Shown one piece after another: positions 3,907-19,221 of a DNA stretch of 64,000 nt. This DNA is from Candidatus Woesebacteria bacterium (lineage in GTDB: Bacteria; Patescibacteriota; Saccharimonadia; Saccharimonadales; EFPC-124). The notes below the pieces were generated by a model. That model was not told the origin of the DNA and searched no databases. It was given only the letters and a program-made list of their open reading frames with translations. Location: positions 71,601-135,600 of the forward strand of contig JASFQB010000004.1 in NCBI GenBank assembly GCA_050115675.1, given 5' to 3'. The translations under genes were made by a program, and so were the position numbers. Numbering within the stretch: the stretch's first letter is position 1; every line of letters begins with the position of its first letter.

Positions 3907-3921
3907 GTGTATATTTTACAC
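3907..3921. promoter_or_regulatory. palindromic operator candidate 1 (GTGTA-N5-TACAC)
   Basis: GTGTATATTTTACAC, in the divergent intergenic region between the regulator and the 4035 operon. Confidence 0.5.
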
Positions 3922-3929
3922 AAAGTATA

Positions 3930-3958
3930 TTGACTTCGCCTTTGCAAAACAATACTAT
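3930..3958 (+). promoter_or_regulatory. sigma70-type promoter of the 4035-7646 operon
   Basis: TTGACT (3930-3935), 17 nt, TACTAT (3953-3958). Confidence 0.55.
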
Positions 3959-3973: not shown

Positions 3974-3988
3974 GTGTACGATGTACAC
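3974..3988. promoter_or_regulatory. palindromic operator candidate 2 (GTGTA-N5-TACAC)
   Basis: GTGTACGATGTACAC is a perfect 6+6 inverted repeat just downstream of the predicted -10 and transcription start. Confidence 0.5.
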
Positions 3989-4034: not shown

Positions 4035-5183
4035 ATGCACAGGGACTTTGCCAAAACCGCAGAACTAATTCGCAAGGCTAGGCAGCCAGAAGACGTTTTT
4101 GGTCGACACAAAGGCACTCCTCAGCAACAGATTGATGCGGCAAAAAGTGTTAGGCGACGACTACTGAGGGTGGTTGCGCCAGACGTTAACGACGACTCCG
4201 CAGAAGCAACAGAGGTTTTTAAGCTTCTTGATGACCTTTGGCAGGACTTTACAAATAAGACGATGCCCAGCACGGTCAAAATTCGCACGCGTTTGCGCGA
4301 GTATACAATTGGACCACTTTTTGCAGCTGGCGATGAAGCAGATTTGTTCAAGTGTAGTTATAACGATGGCGCACATGCAAAAGATGCAGTACTTAAAGTT
4401 GCAGTGGATCCAGTCAGCAACAGCCTGATTCAGGCTGAGGCTAGCGCGCTTAGGATTTTGCACGATTCGACAAGACCTAGCGATGCAAGCTTTCTGTCTT
4501 ATTTGCCAAGGCTGATTGAGACTCTTGGATACAGAGAAGGCGCGAATGCGCCAGTTCGCCAGGCAAATGTTTTGGCGTTTGAGATGAGTGACGGTTTTGT
4601 TAGTCTAGAAGAAATCAAGTCCGCATATCCAAGAGGTATTCACCCTAAGGATGCTGCCTGGATTTGGCGACGACTACTTTTGACCATGGCGTACGCGCAC
4701 AGCAAAAAGGTGATTCATGGCGCAATTTTGCCATCGCACATTTTGGTGCATCCAAAATATCATGGCATTGCTTTGATTGACTGGTGCTATTCGGTTTACG
4801 AACCTGCTAAATCTGGTCAGCGTATTTTGGCCGTAGTTGAAAAGTACCGTTCGTGGTATCCGGAACAAGTGTTTGCAAAGGCCTCACCGCTACCCGGAAT
4901 TGATCTGTCTATGGCGGCCAAGTGCATGATTTGGCTAATGGGCGGAAATCCCCGGACTGGCGAGCTGCCAAAGCAAACAAGTGTTGCCGAGGGCGGCGCA
5001 ATTCCGCAAGAGCTTCGGGGCGTCTTTAAGATGTATACGTATTTGGCCACGGCAAAACGGCCAGAAACGCAAGATGCTTGGAGGCTCGGGCGCGAATTTG
5101 AGAACCTGCTTGTAAGAGCTTGGGGACCTCGTAAATTCCGTCCGTTTGACTCAATCTACCCAAAGATTGGGTCTGTTAGTTAG
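4035..5183 (+). CDS. J-domain-like plus protein-kinase-like protein (predicted pseudokinase)
   Basis: The N-terminus resembles a J domain, but the HPD position reads APD (LLRVVAPDVN). The kinase-like core has AVLKV, EASALRIL, a catalytic-loop position VIHGAILPSHILV (HRDLKPxN expected) and LIDW at the DFG position. Confidence 0.6.
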   Translation: MHRDFAKTAELIRKARQPEDVFGRHKGTPQQQIDAAKSVRRRLLRVVAPDVNDDSAEATEVFKLLDDLWQDFTNKTMPSTVKIRTRLREYTIGPLFAAGDEADLFKCSYNDGAHAKDAVLKVAVDPVSNSLIQAEASALRILHDSTRPSDASFLSYLPRLIETLGYREGANAPVRQANVLAFEMSDGFVSLEEIKSAYPRGIHPKDAAWIWRRLLLTMAYAHSKKVIHGAILPSHILVHPKYHGIALIDWCYSVYEPAKSGQRILAVVEKYRSWYPEQVFAKASPLPGIDLSMAAKCMIWLMGGNPRTGELPKQTSVAEGGAIPQELRGVFKMYTYLATAKRPETQDAWRLGREFENLLVRAWGPRKFRPFDSIYPKIGSVS

Positions 5184-5210
5184 TGCCCGCAACTATGTCT
5201 GGAGGACAAG

Positions 5211-6224
5211 ATGGGCTACACTCCGTGGAGATCCGAACAATATCAAGCAACGCAGCATCGGCGTACTGTTACTGGATCGGCGTTTAGCTACCACCGAGCC
5301 CAGGCCGCTCAGCCTATGAGTCAGCGGCGGGTACATGGTGATCTTGATCCTAAATGGACCAATCATGCTGGCCAGAAGATTCGAGAGAGTCGCGACTCTG
5401 CGGCCCACCCGAACTCTCTGGCAATTGCCACCCTGTTTGACCAAACGGGATCGATGGGCGAGGGTCCGGTTATTCTGCAAAGGAAGCTCGGCACTCTAAT
5501 GAAGGTACTGCTCGAACGCGGCTATGTTGCAAGTCCGCACGTGCTGTTTGGTGCCATTGGCGACGCTCATGCAGGTGAGGTCGCGCCGCTTCAGGTTGGA
5601 CAGTTTGAGTCTGGCCTAGAAATGGACACTCAGCTCGATAACCTCTACCTCGAGGGCTGTGGAGCCGGAAATGGTGGCGAAACGTACGGACTGGGGCTGT
5701 ATTTTATGGCCCGCCATTCTAGCATTGACTGCTGGGGGAAGCGTCATCAGAAGGGATTTTTGTTTCTGATTGGCGACGAGTGCCCGCATCGCGCTATTAC
5801 TCGGCAAGAGGCTTTTACGTACGTTGGCGACAAAATTGAGCGAGATCTGACCATCGAGCAAGTGGTGACCGAGGCTCAGCGTATGTACGAAGTCTTCTTT
5901 TTGCACGTCAGAACAAGTTCAGCTATCGCCCAGGATTCGCTGTCTGTGTGGCGCAAGCTGCTTGGCGATCACGTGATTCAGCTTGAGGGCCTTGACAACA
6001 TCAGCGAGATCATTGCGATCACTGTTGGTATGTCGCTTGGCGCAATTGATTCTGCTGCTCAGGGGGTTAACGATCTGATCGCTTCTGGCGCAGATCCTGG
6101 CGCTGCCAGGCGCGCTGGAAACTCTTTGGCGCAGCTCACTCCCCCTGGCGGGGGAATTGCCGCCAGGTCTACTGGCAACCTGCCTACGTCGCGACGCGGA
6201 CAAGGCGGAAGTAGTCGACTTTAA
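5211..6224 (+). CDS. von Willebrand factor A (vWA) domain protein with G/R-rich tail
   Basis: MIDAS-like LFDQTGSMG and later FLIGDE. C-terminal low-complexity tail PGGGIAARSTGNLPTSRRGQGGSSRL. GGAGG RBS; 27-nt gap from the upstream gene. Confidence 0.7.
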   Translation: MGYTPWRSEQYQATQHRRTVTGSAFSYHRAQAAQPMSQRRVHGDLDPKWTNHAGQKIRESRDSAAHPNSLAIATLFDQTGSMGEGPVILQRKLGTLMKVLLERGYVASPHVLFGAIGDAHAGEVAPLQVGQFESGLEMDTQLDNLYLEGCGAGNGGETYGLGLYFMARHSSIDCWGKRHQKGFLFLIGDECPHRAITRQEAFTYVGDKIERDLTIEQVVTEAQRMYEVFFLHVRTSSAIAQDSLSVWRKLLGDHVIQLEGLDNISEIIAITVGMSLGAIDSAAQGVNDLIASGADPGAARRAGNSLAQLTPPGGGIAARSTGNLPTSRRGQGGSSRL

Positions 6225-6296
6225 TCGTTGCGCGTCAATGAGCCCGGTGCAATTTGCCGGGCTCTACTACTTTTTACAAACTCTCAAGGAGGAGCA

Positions 6297-7646
6297 ATGT
6301 CATCTAGTAAACGCCGCGCCTATATTGTGACAGATTTAGGCTTTGGAGATGCAGGCAAGGGGAGTGTTGTTGACTACTTAACTCGACAAGCCCCGCCCGG
6401 CAAAACACTTGTGGTTCGCCATAATGGAGGAGCACAGGCTGCGCACAACGTCGTAACTCCAGATGGCAGACACCATAGGTTTTCGCAATTTGGATCAGGA
6501 TCTTTTGTGCCAGGCACAAAAACGCATCTTTCGCGCTTTATGGTGGTAGATCTTTTTACTCTGCACGACGAAGCAAACGAACTTGCCGCGTACCACGGCA
6601 TGTCTGACATTGTACAGCGACTTACAATCGACAAAGACGCTTTACTTGTAACGCCACACCAGCAAGCAGCAAACAGGCTGCGCGAACTTATTCGCGGCAT
6701 TCACAGACATGGATCTTGTGGCATGGGAATTGGCGAAGCCATGTACGACATGCTAAACCACGCCGATGCTAGTTTGCGTGTTGGGGACATTTTTAGCCCA
6801 AGCAAAATGTATCGTCGGTTAGAATTGCAAAGACAGCTAAAGATTGATATCTTTAAGCCATTGCTTAGCCGTCTAACTGCAGACGCGCGCGCACGAATGG
6901 AGTGGACGCTACTCAAAAACACATCAGACGAAATTGCCTCGTTTTACAGCGCCATGGCATCGCGGCTTAGGATTGTACCGCTAGACCATATCGAGCAGGC
7001 GATTTGCGACAATGATCAGGTAATTTTTGAAGGAGCACAAGGCGTACTTCTTGACGAGTGGCGTGGATTTCATCCATACACTACATGGAGCACAACCACA
7101 CACAGCAATGCCCAAACTTTGCTTACCGAAGCCAACTATGATGGCGAAATAATTAAGCTAGGGCTTTTGCGTGCATACGCCACGCGTCATGGCGCAGGTC
7201 CGCTACCAACCGAAGATGCAGCACTAACACAAAAAATTCAAGACACACACAACGAATTTGGTCTGTGGCAGAGGCATTTTAGGGTAGGTTATTTTGACGC
7301 AGTTACTGCGCGCTACGCCTTAAATGTTACAGGCGGAGTTGACCAGTTAGTACTTACCTGCGTTGACAGGCTTTACGGCCAGCAAAACTGGAAAGCTGCA
7401 ACCAAATACAAGGCAAGCTCAACAGAGGTAGTCGATCTTAGACCTGGCAGATATACAGATTTAAGACACCAGACAGAATTAACTCGATTGCTGCAAAGTT
7501 GCCAGCCACAATACAAAGTAGCAGTTTCTGGCAGATTTAGTCCAAAAAGAATAAAAAGCTACGTTGATTTTGTAGAATCAGAAATTGGACATAAAGTTGG
7601 GCTAATCTCGACCGGACCAACCGCCAATAACAAGCATGCAATTTAG
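6297..7646 (+). CDS. divergent adenylosuccinate-synthetase-like (PurA-family) ligase
   Basis: Start chosen at MSSSKRR (AAGGAGGAG RBS); the track start at 6228 lies upstream. PurA-like blocks present: GFGDAGKGSVVDYL, VVRHNGGAQAAH, FEGAQGVLLDEW, RAYATRHGAGPLPTE. The GATTGRRRR-type loop is replaced by FGLWQRHFRVGYFD. Confidence 0.7.
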   Translation: MSSSKRRAYIVTDLGFGDAGKGSVVDYLTRQAPPGKTLVVRHNGGAQAAHNVVTPDGRHHRFSQFGSGSFVPGTKTHLSRFMVVDLFTLHDEANELAAYHGMSDIVQRLTIDKDALLVTPHQQAANRLRELIRGIHRHGSCGMGIGEAMYDMLNHADASLRVGDIFSPSKMYRRLELQRQLKIDIFKPLLSRLTADARARMEWTLLKNTSDEIASFYSAMASRLRIVPLDHIEQAICDNDQVIFEGAQGVLLDEWRGFHPYTTWSTTTHSNAQTLLTEANYDGEIIKLGLLRAYATRHGAGPLPTEDAALTQKIQDTHNEFGLWQRHFRVGYFDAVTARYALNVTGGVDQLVLTCVDRLYGQQNWKAATKYKASSTEVVDLRPGRYTDLRHQTELTRLLQSCQPQYKVAVSGRFSPKRIKSYVDFVESEIGHKVGLISTGPTANNKHAI

Positions 7647-7724: not shown

Positions 7725-7801
7725 AGGGGTGTAGCTCAGTTGGCCAGAGCATCGGTCTCCAAAACCGAGGGCCGGGGGTTCGAGTCCCTCCACCCCTGCC
7801 A
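7725..7801 (+). tRNA. trnW: tRNA-Trp (anticodon CCA), CCA end encoded
   Basis: Manual cloverleaf. Acceptor AGGGGTG/CACCCCT. D arm GCTC-AGTTGGCCA-GAGC. Anticodon arm TCGGT-CTCCAAA-ACCGA. T arm GGGGG-TTCGAGT-CCCTC. Discriminator G followed by CCA. Confidence 0.9.
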
Positions 7802-9370
7802 TATAGGACGTAATTGATTTATGAGCTCGGAATTGCCCTCACTAACAGATGTAGCGAGGGCTTTTTCAAAAGTTCGGTTAGCCATTTTTTGACCTTCCAA
7901 AAATTGAACCGTTTCGGCTGTCTTTTTGGCGATTGCATTTGTGAGTTTTGTGTATGTAACAGATAGAGCATCGCCGTTTGATACTAGTTTTTCGAATAGT
8001 TCGGTTATTATGACGCGTTTTTGTTCTGGAACTTTGCTGGCGTAAATCTCAGCGGCCTTCTGAGACAATTCTAAAACCGTCAGACCGCCTTCAAAGTCTG
8101 ATTGCTGTTGTTCTTCAAGTTTGTTGAGCTGATCAATCAAAGAGGCTTTTTCGGCCATGAGCTGATCGTGCTTAGCTTCATAGCGTTCTTTGGTGATGTC
8201 GCCAGCTAGCTTGTCGTCGTAAAGCGTTTCGTCCATGAGCTCAATGCGGCTCAGTTTACTATTGACGAGCGTTACACTTTGCTCGTAGTACTGGGCGCCG
8301 TTTTGAGACTCTGCGCGAATTGCCTCGCTTGTCCAGGCAATGATTTCCTGTGATGGGCTTACGAGCTTTTGTAGCGTCTCTAAGACAAGTTCCTCGGCAC
8401 GATCTTCGCGCAGGAACTTAAGACCCTTGCAGGCAGCATCCTTGCGCTGGCACGTACCGTAATAGCGCTCTTTGTGACGTTCCCATGTTACGGTTGCGCC
8501 ACAGTTTTGACAGCGAATCATATTCTTCAGCACGGGATTGTGTCGAGCCCGCAGCATTGGTTGCTTGTTGTGTAGCTTCTTTTGTACTGCGTTGAATAGC
8601 TCTTTACTGATAAGCGGTTCCTGCGCTCCGGGATAGTCTTTGCCGTCAAAATGGTTGATACCAATGTAAAATGGGTTGCTGAGCATTTTGTGGACGTAGC
8701 TCTTGCTATGCGGTCGGCCTTTGCGCGTCACTATGCCGTTATCCTTCATGAACTCGGTAATAGTGAGAACTGAATGGTTTGGTTCTAGGTATATGCGGAA
8801 CACTTTGCGCATGATACTTGCGGTGGCCTTGTCGATAATATGAATACGCTTACCACCGCGCGTAACGGTGATATAGCCTGGCGGCGGTGGCGCAGGCAGC
8901 CACCCTTGTGCCAGCTTCTCGGCCCAGCCTTTCATTGCTTCTTCACGCAAGTTATCTGTGTACTTTTTGGCAACCGATAAATGGATGTTCCACATAAACT
9001 TAACGTCAGACTTGGCATTCTTGTGTACGAGTAAGTTTTCCTTCACGGCATGTAGTCGCCGATCCTCGTCTTGCTCAAGCCAGTCGTCGATAGCTACTGC
9101 ATCACGCATGTTGCGTGTAAATCGGTCAGTCTTTTCAACGGCCAAGTGATAGATGTCATTCTTGGAGATGTAGTGCAGCATTTCTGTGAAGACCTTACGA
9201 CTTTGCTGCTTGGACGCCGTCTCGGCAATCTTGAATACTTTGACGACCTTAAAGCCTTTTGCTTGGCAGTATCCAGTAAGTAACTTCACCTGTGAGTCAA
9301 GCGAATAGCCCTCATCCTCTTGCGCCTTGCTTGATACACGCGCAAGTATTACTGCGTTAGTTTGCCCCAT
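7736..9370 (-). CDS. large serine recombinase (integrase)
   Basis: N-terminal resolvase domain with AVILARVSSKAQ (catalytic Ser). Also a recombinase domain, a zinc ribbon CQNCGATV...C...C and a long coiled-coil. The last ~22 codons are antisense to tRNA-Trp (..WQGWRDSNPRPSVLETDALAN). Confidence 0.9.
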   Translation of the reverse strand: MGQTNAVILARVSSKAQEDEGYSLDSQVKLLTGYCQAKGFKVVKVFKIAETASKQQSRKVFTEMLHYISKNDIYHLAVEKTDRFTRNMRDAVAIDDWLEQDEDRRLHAVKENLLVHKNAKSDVKFMWNIHLSVAKKYTDNLREEAMKGWAEKLAQGWLPAPPPPGYITVTRGGKRIHIIDKATASIMRKVFRIYLEPNHSVLTITEFMKDNGIVTRKGRPHSKSYVHKMLSNPFYIGINHFDGKDYPGAQEPLISKELFNAVQKKLHNKQPMLRARHNPVLKNMIRCQNCGATVTWERHKERYYGTCQRKDAACKGLKFLREDRAEELVLETLQKLVSPSQEIIAWTSEAIRAESQNGAQYYEQSVTLVNSKLSRIELMDETLYDDKLAGDITKERYEAKHDQLMAEKASLIDQLNKLEEQQQSDFEGGLTVLELSQKAAEIYASKVPEQKRVIITELFEKLVSNGDALSVTYTKLTNAIAKKTAETVQFLEGQKMANRTFEKALATSVSEGNSELINQLRPIWQGWRDSNPRPSVLETDALAN

Positions 9371-9422
9371 ACCCTCTCCTTGTTATTATTTTATCAGCTA
9401 TGAGTGCGCGTAGGGCGTGCAA

Positions 9423-9587
9423 CTAGGCTTCTTCGGCAAGAGCCTTAAAGAACCGCACTAATGATCGCCCGATCTCTAGCGCTTCGTCATAAGTGACAGG
9501 TTTGCACTGTTCTTTTTCAAGGATAAGCCGCAAGGCCTCTATCCTCTCTGGTTCTAGCGCAATGATGTCACCCTCATGACTACTCAT
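9423..9587 (-). CDS. small acidic protein (54 aa) upstream of the integrase; possible directionality or accessory factor
   Basis: Below the track cutoff. My translation: MSSHEGDIIALEPERIEALRLILEKEQCKPVTYDEALEIGRSLVRFFKALAEEA. Same strand as the integrase, divergent from the XRE gene. RBS is weak. Confidence 0.35.
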   Translation of the reverse strand: MSSHEGDIIALEPERIEALRLILEKEQCKPVTYDEALEIGRSLVRFFKALAEEA

Positions 9588-9653
9588 AGTCCCATTTTAA
9601 CAAGTACTGAATGAAAAAGCTACTGTGAGTAGTCATTTTCTTATCCACAGGTG

Positions 9654-9662
9654 TGCTATAAT
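9654..9662 (+). promoter_or_regulatory. extended -10 promoter giving a leaderless XRE transcript
   Basis: TGCTATAAT ends 7 nt before the ATG at 9670. The palindrome CTACTgtgAGTAG (~9621-9633) lies upstream. Confidence 0.55.
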
Positions 9663-9669
9663 CTAGACA

Positions 9670-9891
9670 ATGAATATCGAATATCAGCAAGTCTTTGGCA
9701 AACGTGTGCGCGAGCTTCGTAAGGAGCGCGGACTAAGCCAGGTTGAGCTTGCTTCTAAGGTTGGCATTGACCGCAGCTACATGGGTTTCCTGGAGCGCGG
9801 CGAGCGCAACCCTAGTCTTGAGATGATTGCAAAGATCGCTGAAGCTCTGAGCGTGACGCCCGACGAGCTGCTAAAGAAGTCAGCTAAATAG
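9670..9891 (+). CDS. XRE-family helix-turn-helix regulator
   Basis: FGKRVRELRKERGLSQVELASKVGIDRSYMGFLERGERNPSLEMIAKIAEAL is a classic HTH_3 pattern. Confidence 0.85.
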   Translation: MNIEYQQVFGKRVRELRKERGLSQVELASKVGIDRSYMGFLERGERNPSLEMIAKIAEALSVTPDELLKKSAK

Positions 9892-9922
9892 CGCTTTATA
9901 GTTCTTTTTGAGACTAAGGCAA

Positions 9923-9955
9923 ACTGTCACCAAGCACGGTGACAGTATTTCTATT
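9923..9955 (+). terminator. terminator after XRE gene
   Basis: ACTGTCACC-aagcac-GGTGACAGT (9 bp) followed by ATTTCTATT. Confidence 0.55.
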
Positions 9956-10066
9956 GTCGTAAGGTGTTATACTCAAAATAGCGTATCCCTTACCTATGAA
10001 ATAAATTGGAGTAGGAGGGGTAGGCAAACTATTCTATCTCATCGCCAAACTACAGACTCAAACACT

Positions 10067-10843
10067 ATGACCACTCTTCCCTCAATAACCACCAAACAAC
10101 AAGAAATACTAAAACTAATTTATAGATATAGATTCCTCAACAGAACTCAAATACAAACATTACTAAAACACAAAGATAAAAGACGGATAATAAGCTGGCT
10201 CAAAGACTTACGAGAGAAGCAGTATGTAGATTGGCGATATGATGCAACCAACTTCATCGCTAAAAGCCAGCCAGCAATATACTACCTATCTATAAATGGT
10301 ATTCGGTATTTGCGCGAGACTGGTGAGTATTCGAGTGAAGAGCTGCGGAAGCGGTATAAGGAGCCCGGCCGGACGCAAGTTTTTATTGATAGGTGTCTGC
10401 TGATCGCGGATTGTTGCATAGTCCTACAGACTAAAAGCACAGACGAACTGGACTACTCATACGTGTTGCCTGCCGACTATGCCGATCCCGACAGTCCACA
10501 ACACTTCTTGAATGAGCTAAAGCCCCACCTATTCTTTGCAAAACGGCATAACGGTGAAGCCGTCAATTATGCGTTGGAGAACTTTGAGCTTACCTTGCCG
10601 CGCTATCAGCTGCGCCAACGAATAAAGGACTACGTAGAATATATTGATATTTGGGATGAAGAGAACGGGTCTGCGCCCATAGCCTTATTTATTTGCGCTA
10701 CTACAGCCGACCTGCTCTACGTTAAGCGTCGCGCTAAAAAGCAGATCGAAGAAAGTGGCAACGACGATATAGTAATTCGTGCTGCAACCTTTGAGAAAGT
10801 TAAAGCTACTGGCGTTGCTAGCGCAATCTGGGAGGATACATAG
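10067..10843 (+). CDS. replication-relaxation (Replic_Relax-like) family protein
   Basis: Start chosen at MTTLPSITTKQQEILKLIYRYRFLNRTQIQTLL. This wHTH-like N-terminus is typical of the plasmid replication-relaxation family as I recall it. The track start at 9908 overlaps the terminator. Confidence 0.55.
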   Translation: MTTLPSITTKQQEILKLIYRYRFLNRTQIQTLLKHKDKRRIISWLKDLREKQYVDWRYDATNFIAKSQPAIYYLSINGIRYLRETGEYSSEELRKRYKEPGRTQVFIDRCLLIADCCIVLQTKSTDELDYSYVLPADYADPDSPQHFLNELKPHLFFAKRHNGEAVNYALENFELTLPRYQLRQRIKDYVEYIDIWDEENGSAPIALFICATTADLLYVKRRAKKQIEESGNDDIVIRAATFEKVKATGVASAIWEDT

Positions 10844-10883
10844 CCTCCTGGGCAGTTTCTCGTCCTACCCAGGACGCTGATGA

Positions 10884-11141
10884 CTACTCGGCTGTCACGA
10901 TCTCCACCCAGTCAACTCGGCCAAGCGCCGCGTTTACAAAGTCGGCAATCAGACCAACCGGCTCAAACTCATACAGCTCTTGCACGAGCTCTTCGAGCTG
11001 TTCTGCTTTACTATGCACACTGCCGTCCTCGGCTTTTAGCGCCACCAGCGCGTTGTAGCTTGCTTGCTCATTGTTGAGCCAAAGCGCCACTAACCACGTC
11101 TCGTAATTGCTCCAACCGTTGTATCCTGTCGTTTCACTCAT
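10884..11141 (-). CDS. small acidic protein (85 aa) of a type seen on plasmids and phages
   Basis: N-terminal NGWSNYETWLVALWLNN motif. GAGGAG RBS. Lies downstream of the DUF3768 gene on the same strand. Confidence 0.5.
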   Translation of the reverse strand: MSETTGYNGWSNYETWLVALWLNNEQASYNALVALKAEDGSVHSKAEQLEELVQELYEFEPVGLIADFVNAALGRVDWVEIVTAE

Positions 11142-11167
11142 CGTCTAACTCCTCAAAAAAACTTAGT

Positions 11168-11203
11168 TAAAACAAAACCCGGAAGCCGAACCGACTTCCG
11201 GGT
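11168..11203 (-). terminator. terminator between the DUF3768 gene and the 85-aa gene
   Basis: ACCCGGAAG/CTTCCGGGT stem followed on the minus strand by TTTTGTTTT. Confidence 0.6.
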
Positions 11204-11225
11204 TATACTGAAAAACACCAGTGGA

Positions 11226-11540
11226 CTAATATTCACTGGCGAGCATAACGGTCAGGACTCGCCGACACTTCAACGAAAGCGGGTCCTCTCCGTACTCAAG
11301 TGTCTGATTGTAGTACGATATTTTCCAGAATACCTTTTCGCCAAACCAATGCACGACACCAAAGTCATGTTCACCATACGGATCATTTTCCTCGGTAAAC
11401 TGGTTGAACCGACGAATCTCATCGATCAACCCGCCAAGATCCTCTAATACTTGCACGCCTGGCGTTACCGTAACCCCAAACCCACTACGACGGAACACGT
11501 CATTTTTCATCGCAATCTGAATCGTTTCTTCTGTCTGCAT
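11226..11540 (-). CDS. DUF3768-family protein
   Basis: ENDPYGEHDFG...FWKISYYN...RVLTVMLASEY matches the family signature as I remember it. AAAGGAGG RBS. Confidence 0.75.
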   Translation of the reverse strand: MQTEETIQIAMKNDVFRRSGFGVTVTPGVQVLEDLGGLIDEIRRFNQFTEENDPYGEHDFGVVHWFGEKVFWKISYYNQTLEYGEDPLSLKCRRVLTVMLASEY

Positions 11541-11580
11541 AGCAAACCTCCTTTTAATTCTTATTCCTGAACGGAATCGA

Positions 11581-11699
11581 CCTTCCCGCTCACGGCCGGG
11601 GCAAGGGGTAAATTGGTCGAGTCAAGGTGGAGCGCCTCACCGGACGAACGACCTTGGGTCGGGCGATTTACCCCTTATCATGGAGAGGCAGTGGGAAGG
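11581..11699 (+). other. 119-nt GC-rich imperfect long hairpin (candidate ssDNA promoter, oriT-associated structure or structured RNA)
   Basis: CCTTCCCGCT pairs with AGTGGGAAGG. AAGGGGTAAAT pairs with ATTTACCCCTT. TGGTCGAGTCAAGGT pairs with ACCTTGGGTCGGGCG using three T.G pairs that work only on the plus strand. The right arm carries TTGGGT-16 nt-TATCAT. Confidence 0.6.
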
Positions 11700-11776
11700 C
11701 TAAGCCTTAGCTGTGCCACCAATCTTTGGCTATGAGGTACTGTGGTAATTGGCGAGAATAGTTATAAAATATACAT

Positions 11777-14242
11777 GTGAGGAAAGATAACGAATCCTTT
11801 TTGACTTTTACTCGGAATCGGCCAACTCGTATAGCGTTCGTTGTCGATATCAAGGAAGAAAACGCCTACAGAACGATAGTAGACCTTATTTGTGACGCCT
11901 CAAAAAAGTGGGGTGGTCGTTATTACCAAATTATCCCAGCCGCCAAGGGCACCGTTTCAAAGGTATGGATTGAATACTTAGCGGCATATGACCCCGACCT
12001 AATCTATACCTATTACTCTCTAGCGCCAAAGACGGTGCAACAAATATCGGAAGTCAGCAGCCCCCTCGCGTTCATGAATGCTCAATTCAAAGGCGTGCCG
12101 AATCATCCCTTCGACCCCGTGGATATTTTTCCAGATAATCGCAACACTGCCATGCTATGGCGAAACCCGGTTCAAACTCCCGAAATATTATCGTTTGACC
12201 TCGGTGGGTTTTCGCCCACCGCACCACAATATATTACTGATTTCGTCATGCTGAACTTCGGCACCATCCAGAACGACCTCGCCAATATTAACGCCATAAA
12301 ACAATCGCAAGTAATACTTACAAAGCCGCCAGCTCAGACGGAAGAACAGTTTTTGGAGGCGATGAAGAAGCTCGACGAATGGAATAGGCGGATTTATCCC
12401 ATAGAGTATTCGATGATCCCAGGGCTGACTTATGAATCAGATAGGGATTTAACAAAGGAAACAACGACTGTATATATTGGTGACGAGCCCCTAGACCTGA
12501 TCTATTATTGGAATGACGCGCTGCTGCGCCCTGACTGGCTTACGCACCAGAAAAACCAGGCCATTTTGCCTACAAAGTTCATTGAGGACGAGAAGCTAAG
12601 GCTCGCGGTACGAGGCTGGCTGACCAAGTTCATCAGACAGGAGAACGGTAACTCAAGTCTTCAACGAGTAGAAATTGTTTCGGCTTCCGTAAGCCTTACT
12701 AAGCTGCAAGCATACGCCAAACAGCTACTTGATGGCACTTATATCTTCCATCAGGAATCAAAAGTGACCGTGCCGATCATCCCCAAATACTCCACGCACA
12801 TAGCTACTACGCCCGACATGACATCATTTAGCGTTTCGGGAGATTCATTCACGGTTAATGTTCCCTCGATTGATGTCGTACAGGGAGTAATGGGCGGCCA
12901 AAAGTGGATGACCGACGTGTTAATCGAGCGAAAAGACCACAATGAGCATCGCCAGCCACTAAAAGATTTTTGGCTTCAGTTGCCGCTCAACAATAGCCTG
13001 ACCCTGTTATTAACAAACCGTACGCGCGCCGCACGAATAAATCGTTTGGGATTTTTGTCGGTGCCGCTTTCGCGAGATGTAGATGACCTGCGGCTAACCG
13101 TAAATATTCCAGATGGTGCAAGGATAGCCGAATCAATACTCCGTGCGGACAAAAACAGCATTTTCTATAATGGCGACTTACGACAAGGAAAAGAAGACTA
13201 TCCGTTTTCAGGCGCTAAAAGTTCGACAGCCGGAAAGGCGCTTCGTGGAGCAATACATCTATTCAGAGAGCTTCCCGAAGCGGCAAACTTCTTTCAAAGT
13301 GATTATTGGCGTGACATTTTTATGATTATGGCTGGACAAGATCCATTAGGCAGTCCAAAGACGAAGCAAGCCCTAGAGAACGCTATAAAGAAGAATTTTA
13401 GCAAGGTAAAGCAAACGATCGAGAATGACGTAAGGAAAGGGTTGGCGACTACAAAGCAGCCCGTATCTCAAAAAGTGGTAGATTTTTGGTCTAATAAAAT
13501 TGGATACTTAGCCTCCGATCTTCGAGCAAGAACCGACGTACAGGAGATAGGGTTTTTTGATGATGTTCTTAAAAATAAAGTAGCGGAAGCCAATAAAAAC
13601 GGTGATAAGGAACGATTCGCCGAGTTAAGAGAACGTATGCTTGGCACCCTTGACTGGCTTATCGCAAATGGCATTTTCAGTATCGGCACCCTTAACCACT
13701 GTCGGAGATGTGGATTAAAAGAGTGGCATTCTGTCGATGACCTAAAAACCGACAATGCTTGTCGCGGGTGCGGCAATTCCTTTACTGTTGCCCCTGAACA
13801 GCAGTGGTGGTATAAGCTCAATAGCCTGATATCGAGCGAGGGCGGCATTTACAATCAGGTTCCACTCATCTTAGCTCTCGGTGAGCTTTATGAAGGTTCA
13901 ACATCCTCCTTCATGTACTTCCCGCCGGTCGATGTCTACACTGGCAAAGGTTATAGATTACTAACCGATTTAGATATTTTTGCGATTGTGGATGGCAAGC
14001 TCGTAGTCGGTGAGGTTAAAAACAGCGCAGCGCTATTTGACGATGAAGAAATCGATAAGCTGTTAAAGGCGGCCGCTCGGCTCAAACCTTGCCGTGTCGT
14101 GCTTTTTGCGCCAGACAAACCTAATCAGGCCCTTTTAGACAAAGTCAGATTGTTGAATCAACAGTATTCGGCAAAAGGAATTACAGTTGAATGGCTGAAC
14201 ATGACTCATCTCTGGGGCATGGGTAGTCTTTGGAACATATAA
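11777..14242 (+). CDS. large hypothetical protein (821 aa) with C-terminal zinc ribbon and PD-(D/E)xK-like nuclease motif
   Basis: CRRCGLKEWHSVDDLKTDNACRGCGNSF is followed by LTDLDIFAIVDGKLVVGEVK (D...ExK). The N-terminal ~650 aa are unrecognised. Start codon is uncertain (GTG at 11777, directly after TATAAAAT). Confidence 0.6.
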   Translation: MRKDNESFLTFTRNRPTRIAFVVDIKEENAYRTIVDLICDASKKWGGRYYQIIPAAKGTVSKVWIEYLAAYDPDLIYTYYSLAPKTVQQISEVSSPLAFMNAQFKGVPNHPFDPVDIFPDNRNTAMLWRNPVQTPEILSFDLGGFSPTAPQYITDFVMLNFGTIQNDLANINAIKQSQVILTKPPAQTEEQFLEAMKKLDEWNRRIYPIEYSMIPGLTYESDRDLTKETTTVYIGDEPLDLIYYWNDALLRPDWLTHQKNQAILPTKFIEDEKLRLAVRGWLTKFIRQENGNSSLQRVEIVSASVSLTKLQAYAKQLLDGTYIFHQESKVTVPIIPKYSTHIATTPDMTSFSVSGDSFTVNVPSIDVVQGVMGGQKWMTDVLIERKDHNEHRQPLKDFWLQLPLNNSLTLLLTNRTRAARINRLGFLSVPLSRDVDDLRLTVNIPDGARIAESILRADKNSIFYNGDLRQGKEDYPFSGAKSSTAGKALRGAIHLFRELPEAANFFQSDYWRDIFMIMAGQDPLGSPKTKQALENAIKKNFSKVKQTIENDVRKGLATTKQPVSQKVVDFWSNKIGYLASDLRARTDVQEIGFFDDVLKNKVAEANKNGDKERFAELRERMLGTLDWLIANGIFSIGTLNHCRRCGLKEWHSVDDLKTDNACRGCGNSFTVAPEQQWWYKLNSLISSEGGIYNQVPLILALGELYEGSTSSFMYFPPVDVYTGKGYRLLTDLDIFAIVDGKLVVGEVKNSAALFDDEEIDKLLKAAARLKPCRVVLFAPDKPNQALLDKVRLLNQQYSAKGITVEWLNMTHLWGMGSLWNI

Positions 14243-14253
14243 GAGCCTAGTGG

Positions 14254-15597
14254 CTATAATTTTGGCTGAATAATTTGCTCAGGCGGTTTATCGTCATGAT
14301 TCCACTCGACCGAAGCTGAACCGTTAATCGACTTCTCCCATCCTTCTGAGCTTTTGGAAGGATAGCCTTGCGGTCGATTTATGCCATCGTAGAGCCATAC
14401 GTCAGCGACATGCGACGTGCCTCCGACGCCGAAGTAGTAGCCATTTGGCATTTGTCGCCAAGCAAACCACGCAAGTTTATCACCCCGTACCCTCATATGC
14501 ACCCCATGATCATCATTGGATAGCCCCGATAGTGCCGCTTCAATCGGAAAATCTGGATTGTAGTGATGGTGAATGTTCTTAAACTGAGCCGTCTGCATGT
14601 AGAGTAAGCTTCTTAGGCTAGTTTTTGATTCGTGATATTCTCGACGATCGATTTGCAAACCCCCGTTATCCACGCCCCGTACGCCCGTCATCTTACGCAT
14701 ATGCTTTTGGTAGTCGCGCATTTTTCGGTTCTGTATGTTAACGGCCTTCTTGAACTCTTGAAGGCAAATTGACGCTTCGCGATAGTTGCTTGTTTGGGCA
14801 AGCTGTTGTCGCCAAAGACCTATAAAATTGCCGAACAGCCCGAGACGAACATTTAAATGTACGATGATCGCAAGCCATACATGCCGCGGCATTTGCCTTT
14901 TATCATTGAAGCTGGGCAGTGAATACGCAAGAGATTCATAACGCATTACTATGGCGAAAATGTAGACTGTCGGCAGTAACGCCAGTGGTAACAGTATCGA
15001 GAGGAGTAATTCTTCGGTGGATTGGTGGACTTCCTTCTCGGACCAATTTGAGATTATCGTGGCAGTTGTGCGCCATACAAGCCATATGCCTAGTATTGCG
15101 AGTACCCCGTCAACTAATCGCTTCGCCGGTTTTTGCTCTGGCTCCCTTGCTGCAACGCTCAAGATTGAGAGAAGCGAAATAATAGGCAGCAATATTAACT
15201 CACCAACAAGCGAGAATGGTTCAAGGCCGATATAGATAACAAGCAGTGCCGAGACGCCAACCGCATCGCGAAGAGTCTTCTTTATTAGGCTGTCGGCGTC
15301 TTTGGCGGTACTCGCATTCATAAACATAGGCACGCCGACAAAAAGGATGATGACGACAGTGTCGATGAATAAGCTGTCGTGCCATAATTTGAGATGGTCC
15401 GCTAGCGTAACTACACCTATTGAGTAAGCAAAATACACAGTGAACGGTACGATAATCTGCCATTTTGCCATCGATCTTAGAACATCAAGCAACGCTGGCC
15501 ACGCTACACGACGTACTTTAGGCCACACTGCTAGGCCAATAACTATAATCACCGACCATATCAGCGTAGCGATTTGACGATTATCTAACTCAAACAT
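14254..15597 (-). CDS. polytopic membrane protein (447 aa) with soluble C-terminal domain
   Basis: Multiple hydrophobic segments in the first ~260 aa. Begins 26 nt downstream of the ATPase gene on the same strand, so probably co-transcribed. Confidence 0.6.
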   Translation of the reverse strand: MFELDNRQIATLIWSVIIVIGLAVWPKVRRVAWPALLDVLRSMAKWQIIVPFTVYFAYSIGVVTLADHLKLWHDSLFIDTVVIILFVGVPMFMNASTAKDADSLIKKTLRDAVGVSALLVIYIGLEPFSLVGELILLPIISLLSILSVAAREPEQKPAKRLVDGVLAILGIWLVWRTTATIISNWSEKEVHQSTEELLLSILLPLALLPTVYIFAIVMRYESLAYSLPSFNDKRQMPRHVWLAIIVHLNVRLGLFGNFIGLWRQQLAQTSNYREASICLQEFKKAVNIQNRKMRDYQKHMRKMTGVRGVDNGGLQIDRREYHESKTSLRSLLYMQTAQFKNIHHHYNPDFPIEAALSGLSNDDHGVHMRVRGDKLAWFAWRQMPNGYYFGVGGTSHVADVWLYDGINRPQGYPSKSSEGWEKSINGSASVEWNHDDKPPEQIIQPKL

Positions 15598-15623
15598 TCC
15601 GCTTACCTTGTCCTGTTACCCAG

Positions 15624-18320
15624 CTACAAGCTATGCACCTTTGATTCAGTTTGTGCTTCTTGCTGCTTATTAATTTTTCGAGCAGGTGGCCTTTTCCTTA
15701 CCTCGCCCGTTATTGTAAGTAGCTGCTCTATCTGTTTCTCGACGGAAGCTTTAGGCTTAGCGTAGAGCTTCCGGCTGCTTTTGACAACTTGCTTTGCAGT
15801 GCTACTAGATTCATCTACTTCAAGAGGTACGGTCTGCCCCGAAAATGCGTCCTCACTCTCGTCACCTGTAACCTTCATGTAGAAATGATACGGCGCAAGG
15901 TTCACAATGTCACCCTTTTCAACCTCGGGCTTCATGTATGGCAATATGAAGTCCTCGTCCTCTGGGTTAGCCTTAAGGCAAATAATCGTTGCTGCGTTCC
16001 CGGCGATTACTTTCACTAGGTCTTTATCTTCCATTTGTGCGATGTTCTGGTGTGACACGATCAGTGAAACATGGAACTTGCGCCCTTCGCTGGTGATTGC
16101 GCCAAACTGTGGCGTAGCAAAGTTTTGGAACTCATCTACGTACACAAAGAAGTCGCGCCGTTTCTTTTCAGGTATCTTGGTCCGCTGGTATGCTGCCATC
16201 CAGATGAGCGCCGTCAGAATTGTGCCGAAGAATTCACTCTGGTCTTCACCGATGTCACCTTTAGATAGGTTCACGAGCAGGATTTTACCTTCATTCATAA
16301 TGTCAGCAATTCGCACAGTCGTTTCTTCTTGCAGCAGGATGTGCCGCGACATTTTGCTAGTAATGAAATGCCCCAATCTATGGGTAAGTGGCGCAGTAGC
16401 AGCCGACATTTGCATGCTACCCATCATCTTGAATTCTTTTTCCCAGAATTGTTTGAGTACGGGGTCTTTAAGCGTTTTAGCTACTTCTTTTTGGTATTTC
16501 TTGTCGGTTAGTAATTGCTGCAAGGTGTAGAGACTGGGCTTTGGAGTTTGCAACGCCGTAAGCGTAGTATTGCGCAGGATGTGTTCCATGCGCGGCCCCC
16601 ATTGTGCTTCGTCGGACAGTTTCTTGAATACAGACAAGACGGCACTGGTAATCCAATCGTGTTTGCTGTCTTCATTTTCAAAATCAATACCAGGGTCGAG
16701 GATGTTCAGCCCAACGGGATGGTCACGATCGGATGGATCGAGTACGACTACATCTTTACGGCGGTTTTCTGGCACGATGGCAAGTAACTCGCGTAACATA
16801 TCACCATGCGGATCAAGGACGGCTAGGCCTTTGCCGTTGAGCATATCTTGGTAGATGGAGCTTTTCAGCAGGGTTGTTTTACCTGTACCAGTTTTTCCAA
16901 TGATGTAGGTGTGCTTTTGGCGCTGCTCTAACGTCATACCAATTTCTTGTATCTCGCCACCAAAGAGGTTTGCGCCAACAGTAACATCCAGTTTTGTTTC
17001 GCTGTGCTTAATAGATAGTGGCGTGGCTAGCTCACGACTGCGGCTCTTCACTAGGCCTTCTGTTTTGGTGAGATCGGTGTTTGGGAAGTGATAGAGGTCG
17101 GCTAGTTCTGAGGCGGAGAGGATAGTTTGCTGGGTGAAGATGTGGCGAAGTAGTGAACGATTGCGGAACCGAGCGATCCATCTATCCGCAGTATTGATGA
17201 ACGGCAAACAGCTTCGAGTTTCAATCCGCTGGTAGGTGCTAGAAAACGTGTCAAACGAAGACGTAATGGCATTGATGCGCGTCTGGTTTTCACTGGCGTC
17301 CTGCGAAGCAATAAGGACTCTCATAGATATCTCGAACAACTGTTGATCTAGTTTTTGCTTAATGGCTTTGCCAAGCTCCTGCTCGTATGGATTGTCGGCT
17401 GGTTTCTTGTGGCCACTTTTCCAATCCGCAGGCAGATCATTGGTCGTAATCGCCTCGATTACTCCTGCAACGATCTTTGCGCCCATTGCTATAAGCCAAA
17501 ACGGTGCTAGTAATGCCCGAAGCATAATGCGCGGCGCGTTAATCTTGTACTTGGTTAACTTTGGCGTAAGCTGCTTGTTGAGCGCGATTCTGTGCTCGGT
17601 GTTTCGTGTGTGTCGCAGTTCATTAGGGTGCGTGTTGCTAAAAACAGGTACGGCAACTATCTGAAAGGCAATTAGCGCATCGGTTGGCAGGCTGCGCATG
17701 TGGCCAGTGAGGTACGCTATAGGATCATGCTCGTCCAAGGTTTTGTGGTCGCCTAGCGGTAGCACAAAGTCGCTTGCAAGTTTTAGCTCGGCTATGCTGG
17801 TGGGAATGCTTCCCGAGTCGGGCAAGTAGTCATTAACCTCTGCGATTTTAAGGCCGGGCAGATATGACAATAACGTGCGTTTTACGGTTTCAACCTCGCG
17901 CTTGGGTATACGGATGACGTACCGGATACCTCCGTCGCGAGTCGCAACCAGCTCCAAAGAATACGGTTGCTTGCGTGCGGCCAGATTATCCCAAAAGCCG
18001 TAGTATTTCACCATGCTGCGCATCAGGATATGCAACTGCTCGGTCGCATAGGCAGATTTAGAAGTGTCTGCCGGAAATGTGAGCTGCAAAAAAGTATACT
18101 CAGGCTCCGCGTTGCCAATGCCAAAACGACGCAGGGCAAAGGATAAAAACGTACGAGAGTATTGCCCGAGTTTTATAAGGAGGTAGATGATAACGTAGGC
18201 GACGCCAAATTCAAACAGAAATGCACCAATGACAACAACCAGTGTCCAGCCGTCACTTAAGTGATGTTCTTGCGTATAGCGAACGGGGCCGTTAATTATT
18301 GTGTCCAGAATACCCGGCAT
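15624..18320 (-). CDS. membrane-anchored TraD/VirD4/FtsK-HerA-superfamily P-loop ATPase (coupling-protein or DNA-translocase-like)
   Basis: N-terminal TM segments. Walker A YIIGKTGTGKTTLL. Walker B FFVYVDEFQNF. SLIVSHQNIAQM also present. Confidence 0.7.
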   Translation of the reverse strand: MPGILDTIINGPVRYTQEHHLSDGWTLVVVIGAFLFEFGVAYVIIYLLIKLGQYSRTFLSFALRRFGIGNAEPEYTFLQLTFPADTSKSAYATEQLHILMRSMVKYYGFWDNLAARKQPYSLELVATRDGGIRYVIRIPKREVETVKRTLLSYLPGLKIAEVNDYLPDSGSIPTSIAELKLASDFVLPLGDHKTLDEHDPIAYLTGHMRSLPTDALIAFQIVAVPVFSNTHPNELRHTRNTEHRIALNKQLTPKLTKYKINAPRIMLRALLAPFWLIAMGAKIVAGVIEAITTNDLPADWKSGHKKPADNPYEQELGKAIKQKLDQQLFEISMRVLIASQDASENQTRINAITSSFDTFSSTYQRIETRSCLPFINTADRWIARFRNRSLLRHIFTQQTILSASELADLYHFPNTDLTKTEGLVKSRSRELATPLSIKHSETKLDVTVGANLFGGEIQEIGMTLEQRQKHTYIIGKTGTGKTTLLKSSIYQDMLNGKGLAVLDPHGDMLRELLAIVPENRRKDVVVLDPSDRDHPVGLNILDPGIDFENEDSKHDWITSAVLSVFKKLSDEAQWGPRMEHILRNTTLTALQTPKPSLYTLQQLLTDKKYQKEVAKTLKDPVLKQFWEKEFKMMGSMQMSAATAPLTHRLGHFITSKMSRHILLQEETTVRIADIMNEGKILLVNLSKGDIGEDQSEFFGTILTALIWMAAYQRTKIPEKKRRDFFVYVDEFQNFATPQFGAITSEGRKFHVSLIVSHQNIAQMEDKDLVKVIAGNAATIICLKANPEDEDFILPYMKPEVEKGDIVNLAPYHFYMKVTGDESEDAFSGQTVPLEVDESSSTAKQVVKSSRKLYAKPKASVEKQIEQLLTITGEVRKRPPARKINKQQEAQTESKVHSL

Positions 18321-18435
18321 TATTAGTAAACCCTGTTTAAGCCTGACAAAACAGCAAAATCCACCGCATCTATTGCTATCTTATATTCATAGTAGCATCT
18401 CTGTTAATTTGACGGCAATATATCATGGTGTTTTA

Positions 18436-19221
18436 ATGAAAAATATGAGAGACAACAGCTATACCTCTGAAATTGTGAGTAACGGTAAAAAACTTATTCT
18501 GCTTGTAGCGAAGCTAGAAGACGATCGTCCAGTGACGCCTGATATAGAGCAAATGGTAAAGCAGGCTTTTGGTAGAGTTTCAAAATACCTCAAGAAAGAA
18601 GTCAGCATTTTATATATCCGTGACAATTTTGAGCAAGTTGTCAAAGACAATATGTATTGGGGTATCAATATTACCAACCCCCACGAGGTATTTATAGCTA
18701 TGCCACGATGGGGCGATGATCAGGTGCAAAGCGAACACCTAGCCTTGGCTATTAACGAGGCGTGCTACAGCCTGGTGCGTGCTCAGCGTATCGGTGTGCC
18801 ATTTCTTTTTGGCGACGAAGTTCTTAGTAGAGGTTTTGCAGCGCTATACGCCGAAAACGTTACGGGCTACGAGTATCCAACTAGCCAGGAGCTTAAAAAG
18901 TATATGCGGCGCATGATATTTCGTAGATGGTATAGGTTCCATGCCGGGCACAACAAGTCATGGAGTGTAAAACAGGGCGATCTCCGTATGGCTACCCTTG
19001 TAGGCTATGAATTAGCCCAGACAATATGCGGCGATGATGACCCAAAGACATTTTGCCTAGAAGAGTCTGTGAAGTTATTCGGCATTTTCCGAACGCAAGA
19101 TATATTGTGGGCTCTAGTTCATCCAAAACGAAGACGAAGCGCACGCATCTTGGAAGGTAAAGCACGTAGGCCAACCACCATAAAGGATGTGGTGCTAAGG
19201 CTACTGCCTACATACCTTTAA
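18436..19221 (+). CDS. hypothetical protein (261 aa)
   Basis: Start chosen at MKNMRDNSY. The track start at 18301 overlaps the ATPase start region. No motif recognised. Confidence 0.5.
   Translation: MKNMRDNSYTSEIVSNGKKLILLVAKLEDDRPVTPDIEQMVKQAFGRVSKYLKKEVSILYIRDNFEQVVKDNMYWGINITNPHEVFIAMPRWGDDQVQSEHLALAINEACYSLVRAQRIGVPFLFGDEVLSRGFAALYAENVTGYEYPTSQELKKYMRRMIFRRWYRFHAGHNKSWSVKQGDLRMATLVGYELAQTICGDDDPKTFCLEESVKLFGIFRTQDILWALVHPKRRRSARILEGKARRPTTIKDVVLRLLPTYL

Follow-up and report, generated by a model that had tools for sequence, protein, structure and literature searches.

A PurA-like protein family with altered aspartate-site residues, encoded beside vWA-fold and kinase-like genes in bacteria and phages

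The 64-kb window analysed here (64,000 nucleotides of Candidatus Woesebacteria contig JASFQB010000004.1, assembly GCA_050115675.1, positions 71,601 to 135,600 of the forward strand) encodes a 449-residue protein related to the adenylosuccinate synthetase (AdSS) PurA. This PurA-like protein probably represents a distinct and uncharacterised clade of the AdSS superfamily that is catalytically competent, retargeted to an amine other than aspartate, and part of a module linked to NAD and ADP-ribose. The residues for GTP binding and phosphoryl transfer are invariant or nearly so in 80 relatives, those on the aspartate side are mostly exchanged for other conserved residues, and the gene lies in a conserved cassette with genes for a von Willebrand factor A (vWA)-fold protein and a kinase-like protein. 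It is not a purine-pathway enzyme. The fold and the probable first half-reaction may be regarded as known, whereas the clade, the pocket and the genetic context appear to be new. The family has been visible for twenty years as a 'PurA-like' gene of Bxz1-type phages; full-text literature searches yielded no study of the cassette and no functional study of the phage gene.

Superfamily membership and active-site residues

Membership of the AdSS superfamily is borne out by a full-length match to the Pfam family Adenylsucc_synt (PF00709), which covers residues 11-444, or profile positions 2-413 of 416, with 243.7 bits (E 3.9e-72; cut-off 27), and by an end-to-end alignment with E. coli AdSS (1ade; E 1e-31) at 28-30% identity. 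A metagenome-assembled genome (MAG) of Candidatus Woesebacteria, a member of the candidate phyla radiation (CPR), contains a 100% identical protein on a 252-kb contig, publicly annotated as adenylosuccinate synthetase. However, the protein fails the cut-off of every NCBIfam PurA equivalog, reaching about half of it or less in all five models: 202.7 against 402 (NF002223), 182.4 against 395.6 (TIGR00184), 160.9 against 445 (NF010355), 112.3 against 700 (NF010357) and 108.8 against 368 (NF003295). The PurZ model NF038379 gives 57.7 bits and does not reach its cut-off of 300. A longer open reading frame (ORF) starting from a TTG at 6228 is possible. The 64-kb window contains neither a second PurA-type P-loop nor a purB signature (MPHKRNP lyase motif, up to two mismatches).

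The initial annotation of this ORF, made by comparison with the PurA consensus, had described a conserved GTP/phosphoryl-transfer core with rewritten substrate loops. All the motif changes that it quoted are present in a residue-by-residue alignment to 1ade and in the alignments A1 and A7: GDAGKGS replaces GDEGKGK in the P-loop, NGGAQAAHN replaces QGGHNAGH, HGSCGMGIGE replaces IGTTGRGIGP, and FGLWQRHFRVGYFD replaces FGATTGRRRRTGWLD in the loop that positions aspartate, while the FEGAQGVLLD and TRHGAGPLPTE blocks remain recognisable. These changes go far beyond chance, with the same substitutions invariant or nearly invariant in 80 relatives at 45-52% identity; a large set of database proteins falls in this identity range, and the rewritten motifs are invariant there (alignment A1). 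The contrast between core and loops is further supported by profile hidden Markov model (HMM) scores, by invariant residues and by the deletion of R303, as set out below.

In canonical AdSS, D13 is the base that deprotonates N1-H of the lactam, H41 is the catalytic acid, Q224 contacts the purine, D333 determines guanine specificity, and R143 is donated by the partner subunit. When 80 family members are placed on the E. coli AdSS numbering, G12, D13, G15, K16, G17, H41, G127, D333 and G416 are invariant, Q224 and T239 are each kept in 79 members, and S414 (S414-x-G-P motif) is kept in 74; K331 is replaced by H or C. The catalytic and GTP-binding residues of canonical PurA (P-loop, H41, Q224, D333, SxGP) are therefore all retained. 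Because the family shares with canonical PurA (E. coli 1ade; PF00709, TIGR00184) the fold, the P-loop, D13, H41, K16, Q224, T239, D333 and SxGP, GTP-dependent phosphorylation of a 6-oxopurine nucleotide is expected as its first half-reaction.

The aspartate side of the active site is unlike that of canonical PurA. Apart from R303, the determinants for L-aspartate in E. coli AdSS are T300, T301, V273, R305 and R131, known from the structural and mutational work of Honzatko and Fromm. All six positions are changed in the family: the TT of the aspartate loop becomes WQ (T300 to W in 79/80, T301 to Q in 80/80), R305 becomes F (77/80), V273 becomes H (80/80), R131 is lost and variable across members, and R303 is deleted. 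The last of these residues touches both the ribose of inosine 5'-monophosphate (IMP) and free aspartate in the E. coli enzyme (PMC8342488). Of the four ligands of the IMP 5'-phosphate, which are N38, T129, T239 and the R143 contributed by the partner subunit, T239 alone is kept; N38 is Q in all 80 members, T129 is C in 79, and the position of R143, likewise lost and variable, is occupied by H, Y, F or L. Other new conserved residues in the same mapping are A in place of E14, S in place of T128, E in place of P135 (80/80) and W in place of S240 (79/80).

These rewritten motifs are not a sign of decay, because the GTP/phosphoryl-transfer core is invariant and the aspartate contacts have been exchanged for other invariant residues in the 80 relatives. 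The machinery of the first half-reaction is thus under strong purifying selection, and the aspartate pocket has given way to a largely aromatic set of residues (Trp, Gln, Phe and His).

Separation of the clade rests on HMM scores and alignment A7. Against the family HMM, family members score 413-440 bits, a divergent alpha-proteobacterial and phage branch 200-219, canonical PurA 146-162, and PurZ of phage phiVC8 35. Q38, S-C at 128-129, H273 and [W/H]-Q at 300-301 are already present in the alpha branch, which nevertheless keeps GDEGKG (A7). One Anaerolineae MAG (locus L014) encodes a fully canonical purA, with the motifs GDEGKG, GGDNAGH, TTKRGIGP, GATTGRPRR and TKLD, 3 kb from a family member. 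Since both genes coexist there, the family is a paralogue of purA and not a replacement for it, and this supports the role outside ordinary purine synthesis that the initial annotation had suspected. Part of the case made there for such a role was the reduced style of the genome. The source is indeed a CPR MAG, but the argument is irrelevant, as the family occurs equally in large genomes of Actinomycetota, Myxococcota and Chloroflexota.

The cassette, its regulator and its carriers

The initial annotation was confined to the protein and did not include its context, namely a conserved operon, carriage by phages, and a link to NrtR and NAD. In the window, the genes for a kinase-like protein with a J-domain-like N-terminus, a 337-residue vWA-fold protein and, last, the PurA-like protein are co-directional. 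Neighbourhoods were counted in 85 loci with phmmer searches for the 337-residue and kinase-like proteins. The vWA gene adjoins the PurA-like gene in 79 of these loci and the kinase-like gene adjoins in 68; the order kinase, vWA, PurA-like is found in 56, and the exceptions are mostly contig ends. Independent gene calls on the contigs of relatives give the same neighbours. Linkage is tightest between the vWA and PurA-like genes, which often overlap. A Nudix regulator is the only further conserved neighbour found in the bacterial loci. Some Chloroflexota (L003, L004, L009) show a variant with two tandem vWA-like genes and the pseudokinase gene last, and two Myxococcus loci (L029 and L042) have a second vWA-like paralogue at 8454-9359, 3' of the PurA-like gene. 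Two loci (L026 and L065) contain a PurA-like gene without detectable partners in the 7-kb flanks.

The three cassette genes of the window (4035-7646) share one reading frame, interrupted only by single stops at 5181-5183 and 6222-6224, with the frame between them open. This is probably a coincidence; read-through would yield fusion proteins. Between the vWA and PurA-like genes, which are 72 nt apart, lies a GC-rich, terminator-like hairpin with a poor T-tail (TACTACTTTT), possibly a site of attenuation within the operon or of RNA processing.

The vWA protein matches no Pfam family, and no Pfam vWA model is significant; likewise, a profile search of the vWA-like family against PDB sequences returned nothing, and fold comparison alone worked. 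The AlphaFold2 model (pLDDT 87.5, pTM 0.86) is matched by Foldseek to the vWA domain of SpaC, integrin beta-I, TFIIH p44 and vWF A3 (E 4.5e-6 to 1e-3), and its best BFVD match is the homologue in phage Sauce (TMq 0.82). Together with this fold, the protein has a metal ion-dependent adhesion site (MIDAS) motif of the DxSxS type, D77-x-T79-G80-S81, which is invariant or nearly so, and it is accordingly assigned to the vWA domain proteins. Further invariant motifs are GD, GQFE, LEGGGG and GDE. This compact family comprises 1,018 clusters at E <= 1e-30 among 1.84 billion representatives, and weak DUF444 matches occur in 5 of 30 members. Both termini are distinctive: a Met-Gly start is present in 116 of 120 independently called homologues, ATG-Gly falls exactly at profile position 1 in 80 of the 85 loci, and the disordered C-terminal tail ends in Arg-Leu (RL) in 81 of the 120 homologues.

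The kinase-like protein of the window gives a weak APH/Pkinase match in Pfam, while among 30 family members DnaJ is found in 16 and Pkinase in 14. Its AlphaFold2 model (pLDDT 91.5) resembles PknB, CK1, Aurora and CASK in Foldseek (E ~1e-8), which confirms the kinase fold. The residues of an active eukaryotic-type protein kinase (ePK) are absent: the catalytic loop reads invariantly H-G-A instead of HRD, a His stands in place of the catalytic Asn (alignments A3 and A8), and x-[D/G/N]-W is found at the DFG position. Two ATP-binding residues, the VAIK Lys and the alpha-C Glu, are retained. By these residues, the protein is a pseudokinase. Its N-terminus is helical and forms a J-domain in most family members, with the consensus YRxLAxxxHPD, whose HPD tripeptide is required for stimulation of Hsp70.

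A cytosolic MIDAS-vWA protein encoded beside a kinase-fold protein is also found in the PrkA-YeaH/DUF444-SpoVR system. Unlike in that system, the kinase of the present family lacks catalytic residues and often has a J-domain, and the third partner is PurA-like instead of SpoVR. The TerY-P triad, whose third partner is a PP2C phosphatase, presumably resembles the cassette in its pair of kinase and vWA proteins.

Divergent from the cassette lies a gene for an NrtR-type regulator that combines a Nudix domain with the NrtR winged helix. It matches NrtR_WHD (86.6 bits, cut-off 27), NUDIX (50.1 bits, cut-off 21.1) and AraR_C in Pfam, as well as the NCBIfam model NtrR (E 3.7e-50), where its 170.7 bits are below the cut-off of 400. 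Its Nudix box is degenerate (RRILHHKAG), and it is therefore probably a ligand sensor rather than a hydrolase. An NrtR-type homologue adjoins the cassette in 36 of the 85 loci and also in L174 and L175; the gene is divergently oriented in CPR and runs in the same direction as the cassette in Actinomycetota, and on a Rhodococcus plasmid it lies downstream.

The palindrome GTGTA-N3-5-TACAC has three matches in the window against 0.12 expected, and two of them lie in the 163-bp divergent region between regulator and cassette, one on either side of a sigma-70-like promoter candidate. Saccharibacteria, Uhrbacteria and Chloroflexota contribute five further loci in which the palindrome is located at most 60 bp upstream of the first cassette gene (L010:2737-2751, L016:4181-4195, L023:5984-5998, L039:3198-3212 and L081:4786-4800); in Chloroflexota it exactly fills the -35/-10 spacer of a TTGACT-N17-TATAAT promoter. 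NrtR operators share the core GT-N7-AC, and ADP-ribose releases NrtR from DNA (PMC2330246). This core is included in GTGTA-N5-TACAC, in agreement with a predicted NrtR operator. The third exact match in the window (GTGTAAAAAATACAC, 47446-47460) is far from the cassette and may mark another member of the same regulon.

Genes for NAD salvage adjoin the cassette in large phages. In the 512-kb contig L107 the order is NrtR, NAMPT, vWA, PurA-like, pseudokinase and an NMNAT-type nucleotidyltransferase; in the 416-kb contig L099 it is NrtR, vWA, NMNAT-Nudix, NAMPT, PurA-like and pseudokinase, with a NADAR gene near. Six more large-phage loci have 36 flanking ORFs, which include six kinase-fold proteins, three NAPRTase/NAMPT, two NrtR and one NADAR. 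The vWA protein of the giant-phage copies keeps both the MG start and the RL end. The cassette thus recurs within phage operons for NAD salvage (NAMPT plus NMNAT/Nudix), an association that does not amount to membership. In the window, no NAMPT or NMNAT gene is adjacent to the cassette, which is not a NARP2-type operon. What the cassette has in common with NrtR regulons and phage NAD-salvage operons (NadV/NAMPT plus NMNAT-Nudix; NARP2) is the adjoining NrtR-type regulator and GT-N7-AC palindrome, whereas its three proteins are outside any described NAD pathway. The nrtX-nrtY pair of Rodionov 2008, being an operon of two genes, is not to be identified with the cassette.

A scan of species representatives found the PurA-like family in at least 568 GTDB species. 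The best 80 of these matches include Saccharibacteria, Uhrbacteria, Paceibacterota and Cerribacteria among CPR, and otherwise Chloroflexota, Myxococcota, Proteobacteria and Actinomycetota, the last with Actinomadura, Spirillospora, Embleya, Micromonospora and Streptacidiphilus. The cassette is also carried on plasmids, including megaplasmids, of Rhodococcus, Acetobacter and Rhizobium. On plasmid pAC1084_1 of Acetobacter persici (L090:108-815), the alpha version of the cassette lies about 1.2 kb from an AbiEii/AbiGii-family toxin gene, the sole defence-type neighbour seen. A defence island was rejected as the primary explanation of the cassette: PADLOC-DB 2.0 has no match for the PurA-like or vWA-like proteins and only weak generic matches for the kinase (PglW and PD-T4-6), and 100 flanking ORFs showed no defence enrichment.

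Among GenBank phages, tblastn detected the PurA-like gene in 201 Mycobacterium phage records of the Bxz1-like cluster C1, and the whole cassette was verified in one of these, phage Sauce. There, gp258 is the J-domain pseudokinase (E 1e-101), gp259 the vWA protein, matched in two HMM pieces (E 4e-107), and gp260 the PurA-like protein (E 4.5e-135). The split of gp259 (L086:4203-5990) is caused by an HNH-domain intein at about residues 188-443, inserted in the invariant KGY|xFIGDE motif; hence the annotation 'HNH endonuclease'. Its annotated start is GTG followed by Gly, and the 581-residue vWA-family representative P0405 shows the same two-piece match. The 'PurA-like adenylosuccinate synthetase' of cluster C1 (Bxz1 gp250, Sauce gp260; phrog_1211) belongs to the same family as the window protein, at 40-42% identity; Sauce gp260 scores 440 bits against the family HMM, has all signature motifs and follows gp258 and gp259 in the same cassette. 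It differs in that the phage gene is known by an annotation label only and that its vWA neighbour carries the HNH intein. Rhizobium phage TM30 encodes the vWA-like and PurA-like pair, with no kinase-like gene detected. All four window proteins belong to PHROG families. In IMG/VR, 225 contigs encode a relative bearing the family-specific motifs; most of the best 80 are genomes of 100-512 kb, and in 41 of those 80 the vWA motif Q-x-G-Q-F-E is found upstream on the same strand.

Proposed reaction and alternative readings

The PurA-like enzyme would use GTP to phosphorylate the 6-oxo group of a purine nucleotide, forming a 6-phosphoryl purine nucleotide. An amine other than free aspartate would then displace the phosphate and yield AMP or an N6-substituted adenylate, so that PurB would not be needed. 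Among the candidates for this role, ammonia or another small amine ranks first, though with the balance tipped slightly against it. The cassette would constitute a self-contained, horizontally mobile module, consisting of an NrtR-type regulator with its operator, a pseudokinase with or without a J-domain, a vWA protein and the PurA-like enzyme, and its expression would be switched by an ADP-ribose-type ligand. The module may serve NAD/adenylate homeostasis or the conflict between phage and host over NAD, as a counter to NAD depletion; this NAD-related role is suggested because large phages carry the cassette beside, or interleaved with, NAMPT and NMNAT genes.

If this is true, PurA chemistry has been retargeted a second time, here on the amine side, unlike in PurZ, and the enzyme would either make AMP (or an N6-adenylate) from IMP in one step or ligate a nucleotide to a protein. 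The family is widespread, extending over hundreds of bacterial species in at least five phyla, megaplasmids, Mycobacterium phages and hundreds of uncultivated large-phage contigs. Depletion and reconstitution of NAD are a central battleground between phages and bacteria, in which the triad is a candidate missing component. With the current labels 'adenylosuccinate synthetase' and '2-aminooxy adenylosuccinate synthetase', metabolic reconstructions would wrongly assign a purine or Z-base step to CPR bacteria and phages.

Several observations weigh against parts of this proposal. The substrate assignments are based on residue homology alone, and with three of the four IMP 5'-phosphate ligands altered, the nucleotide itself may differ. 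The NAD-salvage neighbours were examined in eight viral loci, some of which were picked after a search for NAMPT motifs, and the genes flanking the bacterial cassettes are heterogeneous, with no recurrent NAD enzyme among them. Several of the loci with the palindrome have no adjacent NrtR gene; the regulator may be encoded elsewhere in these genomes. NrtR-family regulators also govern regulons unrelated to NAD, for example that of pentose utilisation (PMC2330246, PMC4666351), and NrtR adjacency therefore does not prove an NAD role. Lastly, the J-domain of the window copy reads APD in place of HPD (4170-4185, residues 46-50), and the giant-phage copies in L099 and L107 have no J-domain, so that recruitment of Hsp70 is not universal to the mechanism and seems dispensable or lineage-specific.

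The amine could alternatively be supplied by a protein: C6 of the purine would be joined to the alpha-amine of Gly2 of the vWA protein after removal of Met, and the tag would be read by the nucleotide pocket of the pseudokinase. This is unlikely. In its favour, the Met-Gly start is conserved across the homologues and loci counted above and in the giant-phage copies, and Sauce has Gly after its GTG; the arginines that bind the carboxylates of aspartate give way to Trp, Phe and Trp, which suits a peptide better than a dicarboxylate; the vWA and PurA-like genes are the tightest pair; and the pseudokinase retains the ATP-binding Lys and Glu and no catalytic residues. However, the idea is purely inferential and without precedent, and the invariant N-terminal Gly could be a degron, a structural cap or a metal ligand. 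An N6-linked 'purinylated' vWA N-terminus (about +330 Da), bound by the dead kinase, would make the cassette a new kind of nucleotide-tag signalling device, employed by bacteria and large phages in the contest over NAD and ADP-ribose, which we consider decidedly doubtful.

It is improbable that the enzyme acts on a pyridine nucleotide, for example in a GTP-driven activation and amidation of nicotinic acid mononucleotide or nicotinic acid adenine dinucleotide to nicotinamide mononucleotide or NAD that would complement NAMPT and NMNAT. Such a substrate would be consistent with the interleaving with NAMPT and NMNAT genes in giant phages, with the NrtR linkage and with the altered 5'-phosphate site (N38Q, T129C, R143 lost), and a closed hydrophobic amine pocket would suit ammonia. 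Nevertheless, D13 and Q224, which given their roles in AdSS would not be needed for a carboxylate substrate, are invariant or nearly so, and there is no sequence evidence for pyridine binding.

A non-catalytic GTP-binding scaffold or switch that regulates the vWA-pseudokinase pair or neighbouring NAD enzymes is quite improbable. The pseudokinase partner and the loss of the canonical substrate loops would be in keeping with it, yet D13, H41, K16 and Q224 are (near-)invariant across phyla and phages and would be superfluous for a mere GTP binder, and the replaced loops bear new invariant residues typical of a working pocket.

There is very little to commend an ordinary PurA that evolves fast and, in a reduced CPR genome, turns IMP into adenylosuccinate for the synthesis or salvage of AMP. 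The full-length PF00709 match, the retained catalytic and GTP residues and the public annotation are what it would predict, but not the equivalog scores. Moreover, most of the changed aspartate determinants have become another conserved residue, which indicates selection for something else and not drift. The family coexists with canonical purA in L014, is present in prototrophic Actinomycetota and Myxococcota, was never seen in a purine operon and is instead linked to the vWA and pseudokinase genes, and the purB signature was not found in the window.

PurZ of phages phiVC8 and S-2L, which starts 2-aminoadenine synthesis from dGMP and aspartate, had been cited in the initial annotation as a precedent. 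It stands as an analogy: PurZ is a retargeted, phage-borne PurA homologue and, at 26% identity to E. coli PurA, is about as distant from it as the present family. The pattern of change is reversed: with Ser at the D13 position, dGMP as nucleotide, ATP as donor and an aspartate loop that is preserved (PMC8342488), PurZ alters the nucleotide side where the family alters the aspartate side. That the family itself makes N6-succino-2-amino-deoxyadenylate for 2-aminoadenine (Z) DNA, as its phage members are labelled, is barely credible, given the low scores in both directions between family and PurZ models, the retention of D13 and guanine-specific D333, the WQ in place of the aspartate-loop tip that is strictly conserved in PurZ, and the absence of datZ, mazZ and dpoZ neighbours from every locus inspected. 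The RefSeq/PHROG label '2-aminooxy adenylosuccinate synthetase' on phage members (L086, NC_054722.1 gp260; L092, NC_070966.1 gp019; phrog_1211) looks like a propagated misannotation, as the family scores much lower than the PurZ model requires and lacks the hallmark residues of PurZ.

Features of the window and the adjacent element

Coordinates of the cassette, its regulatory sites and the neighbouring genes in the 64-kb window
Feature	Position	Strand	Basis or remark
NrtR-type regulator, Nudix + winged helix	3206..3871	-	Pfam, NCBIfam; divergent from cassette
Operator-like palindrome 1, GTGTATATTTTACAC	3907..3921	.	Pattern search, divergent intergenic region
Sigma-70-like promoter candidate, TTGACT-17 nt-TACTAT	3930..3958	+	Consensus scan 9/12, weak alone
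Operator-like palindrome 2, GTGTACGATGTACAC	3974..3988	.	Pattern search, 3' of promoter candidate
J-domain-like N-terminus + pseudokinase, 382 aa	4035..5183	+	Pfam weak, AlphaFold2, Foldseek
vWA-fold protein, 337 aa, MIDAS-like DxTGS	5211..6224	+	AlphaFold2 + Foldseek
GC-rich hairpin, 10-bp stem, GAGCCCGGTG...GCCGGGCTC	6240..6264	+	Terminator-like scan, vWA/PurA-like gap
PurA-like enzyme, 449 aa	6297..7646	+	ATG at 6297, stop 7644-7646; GTP/phosphoryl-transfer core intact, aspartate pocket replaced
tRNA-Trp	7725-7801	+	Apparent start of integrative element
Large serine recombinase	7736-9370	-	Overlaps tRNA-Trp
Replic_Relax protein	9908-10843		
TraG/TrwB-type coupling protein	15624-18320	-	
ParA-type ATPase	20676-21695		

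Beyond the cassette, an integrative element appears to start at the tRNA-Trp gene and to span 7725-21695. The cassette was considered as a part of it and this was rejected: the tRNA-Trp gene separates the two, and housekeeping genes flank the cassette in other CPR genomes. The genes to the right of tRNA-Trp, which encode the recombinase, the relaxase (Replic_Relax), the coupling protein and the ParA-type ATPase, appear to form an element resembling integrative and conjugative elements, integrated in the CPR (Woesebacteria) genome.

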